A stretch of DNA of 64,000 nt, taken from Escherichia coli (GTDB lineage Bacteria > Pseudomonadota > Gammaproteobacteria > Enterobacterales > Enterobacteriaceae). Below, piece by piece: positions 11,104 through 11,826 of the stretch; position 1 is the stretch's first letter, and every line of letters begins with the position of its first letter. Location: the NCBI RefSeq assembly GCF_013315695.1, contig NZ_CP054353.1; one strand, written 5' to 3'. Under the pieces are notes generated by a model. The model had not been told where the DNA came from. It made no database searches and saw only the letters and a list, made by a program, of their open reading frames with translations. Made by a program: the position numbers and the translations under genes.

Positions 11104-11826
11104 ATGAACACTGAAAATCTCCTTAAAAACAATAACGTAGACCACGAAGAGATCGCTAAATTTGAAGCCGTCGCCTCCCGCTGGTGGGATCTGGAAGGTG
11201 AGTTCAAACCGCTGCACCGTATTAACCCGCTGCGTCTGGGCTATATTGCCGAGCGTGCTGGCGGTTTATTTGGCAAAAAGGTGCTCGATGTCGGTTGTGG
11301 CGGCGGCATTCTGGCCGAGAGTATGGCGCGCGAAGGTGCGACGGTGACCGGTCTGGATATGGGCTTTGAGCCATTGCAGGTGGCAAAACTGCACGCACTG
11401 GAAAGCGGCATTCAGGTGGATTACGTGCAGGAAACCGTGGAAGAGCACGCGGCAAAACATGCCGGGCAGTATGATGTGGTGACCTGCATGGAGATGCTGG
11501 AGCACGTCCCCGATCCTCAGTCAGTGGTCAGAGCCTGTGCGCAACTGGTGAAACCGGGCGGCGATGTCTTTTTCTCGACGCTCAACCGCAACGGCAAGTC
11601 ATGGCTGATGGCGGTGGTTGGTGCTGAATATATTTTGCGCATGGTGCCTAAAGGTACACATGATGTGAAGAAGTTTATTAAACCGGCAGAATTGCTGGGC
11701 TGGGTGGATCAGACCAGTCTTAAAGAACGGCATATGACCGGGCTGCATTACAACCCTATAACTAATTCCTTTAAGCTCGGCCCCGGCGTTGATGTGAACT
11801 ATATGCTGCACACGCAGAATAAGTGA
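11104..11826 (+). CDS. ubiG: Bifunctional 3-demethylubiquinone-9 3-O-methyltransferase / 2-polyprenyl-6-hydroxyphenol methylase
   Basis: 240-aa ORF; SAM-binding motif [13 protein letters not shown]; from residue ~11 onward matches recalled K-12 UbiG; first ~10 residues differ ([10 protein letters not shown] vs recalled MNAEKSPVNH). Confidence 0.95.

Follow-up and report, generated by a model that had tools for sequence, protein, structure and literature searches.

Why should a UbiG protein that otherwise follows that of Escherichia coli K-12 begin with ten residues of its own? The window, a stretch of 64,000 nucleotides of E. coli DNA (GCF_013315695.1, contig NZ_CP054353.1), carries on its plus strand an open reading frame (11104-11826) for a 240-residue UbiG that is identical to RefSeq WP_001091058.1. 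The initial annotation had set the first ten codons against a K-12 N-terminus of MNAEKSPVNH and had tentatively placed the 5' end of ubiG, with its promoter, in or next to the boundary of an insertion between gyrA and ubiG. The comparison was accurate: UbiG of K-12 MG1655 (NC_000913.3, b2232) starts with MNAEKSPVNHNVDHEE, so MNAEKSPVNH is the true K-12 start and is not shared by the window, where codons 1-10 encode a variant decapeptide. A nucleotide alignment with K-12, which the same annotation had recommended, places the divergence exactly. The sequences differ at 12 of the first 28 nucleotides of ubiG (positions 6, 7, 9, 15-18, 20-23 and 28) and at none of the next 88, up to window position 11220. 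Residues 11-240 differ from K-12 at only 2 positions, and a separately polymorphic stretch lies in the 3' part of the gene (11517-11790).

The protein matches the NCBIfam model TIGR01983 (bifunctional ubiquinone O-methyltransferase) with 303 bits against a cut-off of 102.95, over residues 16-234, contains the glycine-rich motif of class I SAM binding and aligns from residue 1 to 240 with PDB entry 4KDC (E = 3.7e-159). Nowhere is the protein more variable among Enterobacteriaceae than in its N-terminal residues, which are hypervariable. In 120 UbiG cluster representatives they follow a template of MNxE[KNQ], five variable residues and NVD, and the replaced codons fit it; judged by this template, they are orthologous ubiG sequence rather than random DNA. 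The K-12 N-terminus also matches MNAEK..V.H, the consensus shared by the nearest UbiG clusters; that of the window does not. [quoted passage not shown] Since the tail is hypervariable, its first 9 residues cannot be traced in the crystal and the HMM match begins only at residue 16, the change of decapeptide is probably neutral. The altered residues would lie outside the methyltransferase fold and are most likely without effect on catalysis, and the start of UbiG appears to tolerate complete replacement.

The altered codons form the right-hand edge of a much larger replaced block. By BLAST, homology with K-12 ends 55 nt before the gyrA ATG, at window position 7252, and restarts at 11127; window 7253-11126 (3,874 bp) stands where K-12 has 114 bp. 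K-12 itself has a gyrA-ubiG spacer of 146 bp without the cassette. Three cassette-linked differences just beyond these limits, at 7239, 7241 and 11131, set the window apart from all four cassette-less E. coli compared, so the block spans at least 7239-11131 (about 3.9 kb). Position 11131 is nucleotide 28 of ubiG and the last cassette-type difference in the gene, and the entire region upstream of it is non-K-12. The proposal that the ubiG 5' end and promoter lie in or beside the boundary can thus be sharpened: both are inside the replaced block. The features of the block and its junctions are listed in the table below.

Table. Coordinates of the block between gyrA and ubiG, its genes and its junctions (window numbering)
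Feature	Position	Strand	Remarks
Left boundary of block, gyrA core promoter	7234..7253	-	Extended -10 TGtTATAAT at 7242-7250; predicted TSS 7234
ERIC/IRU-type repeat element	7415..7538	-	Between gyrA and dehydratase gene
Acid-sugar dehydratase, enolase superfamily (mandelate racemase/muconate-lactonizing enzyme)	7548..8762	-	92.5% amino acid identity with Salmonella orthologue
MFS transporter, D-galactonate-transporter family	8763..10090	-	Pseudogene here, 1-nt deletion near 10004
20-nt motif, two copies 70 nt apart, with palindrome CTGATATATCAG	10177..10266	.	Divergent MFS/GntR intergenic region; candidate operator sites
GntR/FCD-family regulator, 232 aa	10328..11026	+	Orthologue of Salmonella STM2275, 87% amino acid identity
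GntR segment, possible template	10917..10941	+	Matches ubiG 11117-11141 at 20/25 nt, same codon register
GntR-ubiG spacer, 77 bp, with predicted ubiG promoter	11027..11103	+	-35-like ATAACA 11042-11047; TG 11063-11064; -10 TATACT 11066-11071
Cassette-type 5' end of ubiG, codons 1-10	11104..11131	+	nt 1-14 as in Salmonella ubiG; nt 15-28 only in this E. coli haplotype
E. coli-type rest of ubiG	11132..11826	+	No K-12 differences before 11220

The left boundary falls in the gyrA promoter. As far as 55 nt before its ATG, the K-12 gyrA leader matches that of the window except for 2 bases, and the substitutions at 7239 and 7241 correspond to promoter positions -5 and -7, in a segment without variation among the other taxa compared. 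In a Salmonella transcription start table, the gyrA TSS lies 37 nt upstream of the ATG (PMC3293720). It corresponds to window position 7234, which puts the left boundary immediately 5' of the extended -10 element of gyrA. The bases linking this element to the TSS read TTGCGAC in Salmonella and CTCCGAC in the window.

G+C content is 39.6% in the block against 50.7% in the whole window. The block holds three genes only, with no integrase, transposase or other mobility gene among them; no tRNA gene lies in window 4000-13000, and no repeat family has one copy at each of its ends. A duplicated ubiG -10 region flanking the cassette was considered and rejected: the candidate, GCTATACTCGT (7408-7419), forms the end of the ERIC element, which is conserved in Salmonella. 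As to the genes themselves, the MFS transporter is intact in strains SMS-3-5 and A22 and annotated as a pseudogene in a genome identical to this one. For the GntR gene, RefSeq uses a longer 743-nt model (10284-11026) that is flagged as frameshifted in every inspected carrier. The closest solved structures to the dehydratase, 4E6M and 2GL5, are each named 'putative dehydratase protein'.

A search with the GntR regulator returned a Salmonella enterica cluster at 88% identity, and three S. enterica contigs carry gyrA (-), dehydratase (-), MFS transporter (-), GntR (+) and ubiG (+) in the order of the window. In LT2 numbering these are STM2273 (dehydratase), STM2274 (MFS transporter), STM2275 (GntR) and STM2276 (ubiG), and the insertion site is the same. 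Between the window and Salmonella, nucleotide identity and the proportion of synonymous differences (pS) are 82% and 0.65 for the dehydratase, 79% and 0.70 for the transporter and 80% and 0.71 for the regulator, compared with 79-80% and 0.72-0.74 for ubiG and 86% and 0.44 for gyrA. The corresponding amino acid identities are 92.5%, 88.7% and 87.0% for the cassette proteins, 90.8-92.5% for UbiG and 91.5% for GyrA. Synonymous sites of the cassette are thus saturated like those of ubiG. The two cassette copies accordingly date back to the separation of the two genera, which makes the block old and excludes a recent transfer between them.

The junctions are shared as well. On the left, the window and Salmonella have in common GGTAAACG.AATGCAG and an ERIC-type element beside the dehydratase gene, and on the right CACCTGCTATACTGCCC and ATGAACACTGAAAA. 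Nucleotides 1-14 of ubiG are the same in the window as in Salmonella; K-12 and two loci of other Enterobacteriaceae (L041 and L043), all three identical to one another here, depart from them at 3 positions. L041, L043 and a third such locus (L044) have gyrA and ubiG adjacent, without the cassette, a state that is widespread and intact. Where the window and Salmonella have CACCTGCTATACTGCCC, the cassette-less taxa have CTGATATACTC, and L041 and L043 share the K-12 promoter layout GCTTTATTCA-N-CTGATATACT. In Salmonella, GCTTTATTC is retained in the left flank, between gyrA and the cassette (its score against L043 is reached by 0 of 300 shuffles). Its position there indicates that the cassette lies within what was ancestrally the promoter region of ubiG and leaves the extended -10 to that gene. 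Junction sequences that group by cassette state rather than by species are, in these alignments, the signature of block exchange by homologous recombination. The initial annotation had treated the locus as a plain insertion; it is an allelic replacement, in which the flanking promoter regions of gyrA and ubiG are orthologous but diverged. The Salmonella cassette at the same site, the left boundary in the gyrA promoter and the hypervariable tail had likewise escaped it.

Within E. coli, the variant ubiG 5' end is present in 142 of 5,426 complete genomes, and the seven carriers inspected have an identical junction sequence throughout; with the variant shared so widely and these junctions identical, an assembly artefact is excluded. 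The cassette accompanies it in 141 of the 142 carriers, nearly complete in 140. Its identity across the 141 is 98.3-100% and the flanks are not the same in all carriers, so the block is not very recent in E. coli. Carriers include SMS-3-5 and CFSAN061771, the latter of ST1485 and phylogroup F (PMC9630279), and the junction provides a simple marker for the E. coli lineages in which it occurs, this phylogroup F strain among them. Strain ST648 has no cassette; it was tried as a close cassette-less relative for sharpening the crossovers and set aside, its flanks being only 96.6-97.1% identical to the window. In strain WB61, window 7299-11061 is absent, and the sequence from CTGCTATACT onward is kept together with the same UbiG protein. 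WB61 reads as a strain that lost the cassette by deletion and retained window-type flanks and the variant 5' end. The variant allele is fixed in the 142 genomes, one of which has lost the cassette.

With respect to expression, the initial annotation had expected the ubiG promoter in the 77 bp behind the GntR gene, or else co-transcription with that gene. A promoter-like sequence is present there: TG-c-TATACT (11063-11071), 32 nt before the ATG, is the only promoter-like match in 10900-11200 (shuffles give a mean of 0.8). It is separated by 18 nt from the -35-like ATAACA. In its TG-C-TATACT sequence, the C at -13 and the poor -35 match it resembles extended -10 or sigma-S-type promoters. K-12, like the window, has an extended -10 TGnTATACT 32-35 nt upstream of the ubiG ATG, with A at -13 where the window has C. 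The 17-nt core CACCTGCTATACTGCCC is identical in Salmonella, where it lies directly upstream of the primary ubiG TSS. That site was mapped by dRNA-seq in SL1344 at position 2378003, with a 29-nt 5' UTR (PMC3293720, Additional file 2, Table S1), and the authors class its promoter motif as 'Sigma 38', a label that denotes a motif match only (PMC3293720). By alignment with Salmonella, ubiG in the window should be transcribed from this extended -10 with a start near 11077-11079, and we infer that the promoter is used in E. coli. No terminator-like site was found between GntR and ubiG, so read-through from GntR may add to ubiG transcription, and the co-transcription half of the earlier expectation may have a place beside the promoter.

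We propose that the block is the E. coli counterpart of STM2273-STM2275, carried between gyrA and ubiG by a minority of E. coli. Homologous recombination would have placed it on an E. coli backbone, the crossovers falling where the flanks are most conserved: in the gyrA core promoter and leader on one side and at the start of the conserved part of ubiG on the other. In the resulting ubiG, everything from the promoter through the leader and start codon to codon 9 or 10 would be of cassette type and the remainder of E. coli type, the extended -10 staying with ubiG in both haplotypes. Taken as a whole, with its recombined old cassette, mosaic ubiG, spacer promoter and neutral decapeptide, we hold this allelic-block model to be very probably correct; in proposing it, we infer both the direction and the age of the transfer. 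Mosaic core genes at the edges of accessory blocks exchanged by homologous recombination are known in enterobacterial genome evolution, and the junction described here is an ordinary one of this kind. As in such mosaics, a housekeeping gene shows an abrupt rise in identity, from about 57% to 100%, beside a low-GC block that lacks an integrase, a tRNA gene and flanking direct repeats. Unlike in such mosaics, the crossover falls within the first 10 codons and takes the promoter of the flanking gene with it, and the block is old, with no source lineage found.

Searches for that source covered several kinds of data. In protein searches and clusters for UbiG, GntR and the dehydratase, no variant-decapeptide junction appeared outside E. 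coli; the UbiG variant allele and the 232-residue regulator were returned only under E. coli names, and the next regulator clusters were the Salmonella one at 88% identity and then one at 72% with its module elsewhere. A pattern scan of metagenomes for the promoter with the start codon gave four E. coli-like carrier contigs and ten chance matches to an unrelated gene. Scanning species-representative genomes with the dehydratase yielded only distant Budviciaceae (77-78% identity, GntR in a different position, no ubiG nearby). This last scan is insensitive, having missed Salmonella, in which all six 8-residue patterns mismatch, and absence elsewhere is not to be read from it.

Could the history have run the other way, with the cassette ancestral in E. 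coli, the K-12 spacer a deletion product and the K-12 N-terminus derived? The saturated divergence of the cassette from Salmonella, matching that of core genes, would be expected on this account, as would a cassette diversity of up to 1.7% within E. coli and the failure to find an external donor. A real deletion derivative is nevertheless at hand in WB61, and its flanks are window-type and nothing like K-12, which indicates that the K-12 spacer is no deletion product of the window haplotype. The K-12 spacer and first codons instead resemble those of L041 and L043, with GCTTTATTCA-N-CTGATATACT intact and the first 14 nucleotides identical, and it is the K-12 N-terminus, not that of the window, that fits the MNAEK..V.H consensus. 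We therefore regard cassette ancestry as extremely improbable. WB61 bears in the same way on the idea that ubiG has no promoter of its own and is expressed solely through GntR read-through. A 77-bp spacer devoid of any terminator-like site is compatible with such an arrangement, but WB61 lacks the whole GntR gene and still has CTGCTATACT onward and an intact ubiG. The extended -10 is, moreover, identical to that of a Salmonella promoter with a mapped primary TSS, and dependence on read-through alone appears highly improbable.

The allelic-block model accounts less simply for codons 5-10. Salmonella UbiG starts MNTEKPSVAH, and nucleotides 15-30 of ubiG in the window differ at 13 of 16 positions from Salmonella and at 9 of 16 from K-12. 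Being unlike the known haplotypes, they call for more than a simple crossover, either an extra event or an unsampled donor. One candidate event, confined to nucleotides 15-28, is ectopic gene conversion or template switching, in which a tract of roughly 15-20 nt of the GntR gene, located 200 bp upstream, was written into ubiG. The putative template (see table) forms a direct repeat (D3) with ubiG and encodes DMLKNNNVE where UbiG has NLLKNNNVD. A match that good occurs in 1 of 1,000 dinucleotide shuffles of the cassette (either strand), only 3 of 3,836 cassette 15-mers match the GntR 15-mer as well, and the corresponding 25-mers of K-12, Salmonella, L041 and L043 match the GntR site at only 9-15 of 25 positions. 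With the register fixed and the 15 divergent bases permuted, P(>=11/15) is 0.0013, a post hoc value, and 4 of these 15 bases are still unlike the template. The GntR peptide is conserved in Salmonella and is hence the older sequence. On the other hand, the sequence here is rich in A, and a GntR gene of 36% GC commonly encodes Lys/Asn-rich peptides; a weaker second GntR match (D5, 18/24) illustrates that composition yields such resemblances, and no intermediate allele was found. The match hints at a templated patch, which we nonetheless consider unlikely. It would anchor on a pre-existing AATAACGT(T/A)GA similarity between GntR and ubiG and is compatible with the block model upstream.

Alternatively, codons 5-8 might be K-12-like sequence altered by compensated 1-nt indels, an A lost in GAAAAA and an A gained in a later A-run, giving NLLK for KSPV. 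With the indel pair, 15 of 21 nt match K-12 instead of 12, a gain reached by 44 of 2,000 shuffles (p about 0.02), which is weak and post hoc. Nucleotides 15-30 are indeed nearer to K-12 (9 differences) than to Salmonella, L041 and L043 (13-14), and a metagenome variant (L055) has a G at nucleotide 17 that equals K-12 in the shifted register, although this is a single site. The shifted frame, however, reads TCT CCT TAA, and the GntR segment explains the same bases better, so that a compensated frameshift seems very unlikely. WP_001091058.1 is not to be taken for a frameshift or a mis-called start.

In the allelic-block model, which we favor, any phenotype of the variant would arise from altered transcription or translation initiation. 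No Shine-Dalgarno sequence is recognisable in the ubiG spacer of the window, whereas K-12 has GGAG, and ubiG expression in carriers could differ from that in K-12. The predicted folding energy of the leader is -0.8 kcal/mol in the window, which makes it essentially unstructured, compared with -7.9 in K-12 and -9.8 in Salmonella. Should the promoter differences be functional, the regulation of gyrA and ubiG in carriers would depart slightly from that in K-12. A stronger combined claim, that NLLKNN was overwritten from GntR and that the cassette-specific ubiG and gyrA promoters measurably change the expression of ubiquinone synthesis and gyrase, strikes us as decidedly doubtful.

Public genomes annotate the genes, but we found nothing specific in the literature on the cassette, the junction or the E. 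coli ubiG promoter. Outside annotation and population genetics, the locus has little significance. It offers a base-by-base case of an accessory cassette whose exchange took along the promoters and first codons of both flanking housekeeping genes. An Rfam search of the spacer found no known RNA, and the ubiG leader contains an ATG-TAA mini-ORF at 11096-11101.

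The whole cassette, the dehydratase-MFS-GntR block between gyrA and ubiG, is gone from the naturally occurring derivative E. coli WB61 (locus L061, 4900-5042), equal to a deletion of window 7299-11061. WB61 retains the window-type flanks, the promoter core CTGCTATACT and UbiG WP_001091058.1, the protein with the variant N-terminus encoded in the window. The extended -10 element begins 1 nt downstream of the end of the WB61 deletion.

Variants of the junction, the cassette-type first codons of ubiG, were found on two metagenome contigs that resemble those of cassette-bearing E. 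coli. At locus L050 (4101-4156) the junction has C at nt 28, counted from the ubiG ATG, as in K-12, and at locus L055 (11952-12007) UbiG starts MNTENRLKNN, with G at nt 17. The cassettes of both are 98.8-99.0% identical to that of the window. In the window, the ubiG leader contains a start-stop mini-ORF, whose Salmonella equivalent differs in reading ATG-TAC-TCA-TGA and in overlapping the ubiG start codon. Neither the window nor Salmonella has a clear Shine-Dalgarno sequence in the ubiG leader.

Features at the edges of the cassette, within it and downstream of ubiG
Feature	Window position	Strand	Location or match
gyrA promoter substitutions	7239, 7241	minus	-5 and -7 from predicted TSS 7234
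ERIC/IRU repeat	7415-7538		sub-threshold Rfam match to V_AS5
20-nt motif, two copies 70 nt apart	10177-10196, 10247-10266		divergent MFS/GntR intergenic region
ATG-TAA start-stop mini-ORF	11096-11101		2 nt upstream of ubiG ATG
REP-type repeats	11813-11982	both	downstream of ubiG; sub-threshold Rfam matches to naRNA4

At the left edge of the cassette, the stretch from the -10 element to the TSS of gyrA reads TATAAT-CTCCGAC-C in all seven cassette-bearing E. coli compared. It reads TATAAT-TTGCGAC-C in K-12, three other E. coli, three Salmonella loci, L041/L042 and L043, where L041 and L043 are cassette-less Enterobacteriaceae loci with gyrA adjoining ubiG. Apart from these two substituted positions, the 55-nt gyrA leader is invariant among the loci compared. 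The changes might have an effect, because the promoter part between -10 and the TSS is linked to supercoiling-sensitive transcription.

Compared with K-12, the 3' part of ubiG (window 11517-11790) shows 19 differences over about 275 nt, and the 390 nt before it show 3. Of 5,425 genomes, 4,034 are only 90-95% identical to this 3' part. Taken together, these comparisons mark the ubiG 3' end, adjoining yfaL, as a separate polymorphic zone prone to recombination.

Within the cassette, about 20 SNPs that set this strain apart from SMS-3-5, A22 and AR_0077 are clustered in window 9678-10390, from the 5' end of the MFS gene through the divergent intergenic region into the 5' end of the GntR gene. The MFS gene is frameshifted by a 1-nt deletion near window 10004, which AR_0077 shares. 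The 20-nt motif of the intergenic region includes the 12-bp palindrome CTGATATATCAG, and its two copies are likely operators of the GntR-family regulator. The ERIC/IRU repeat includes the ERIC2 primer sequence, in reverse complement, and a near-match to ERIC1R. In SMS-3-5 this repeat is longer by about 150 bp of internal sequence, and the Salmonella element has the same ends as that of the window but a different interior.

The dehydratase-MFS-GntR module also occurs in four Logan assembly loci (L037-L040), divergently arranged as in the window and with a regulator 72% identical, but in other chromosomal surroundings, not beside gyrA and ubiG. On a 444-bp Terrisporobacter petrolearius contig (L026), the 148 encoded residues match the E. 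coli dehydratase at 100% identity; this is a low-coverage contig within a Firmicutes assembly, and the match probably reflects contamination of that assembly.
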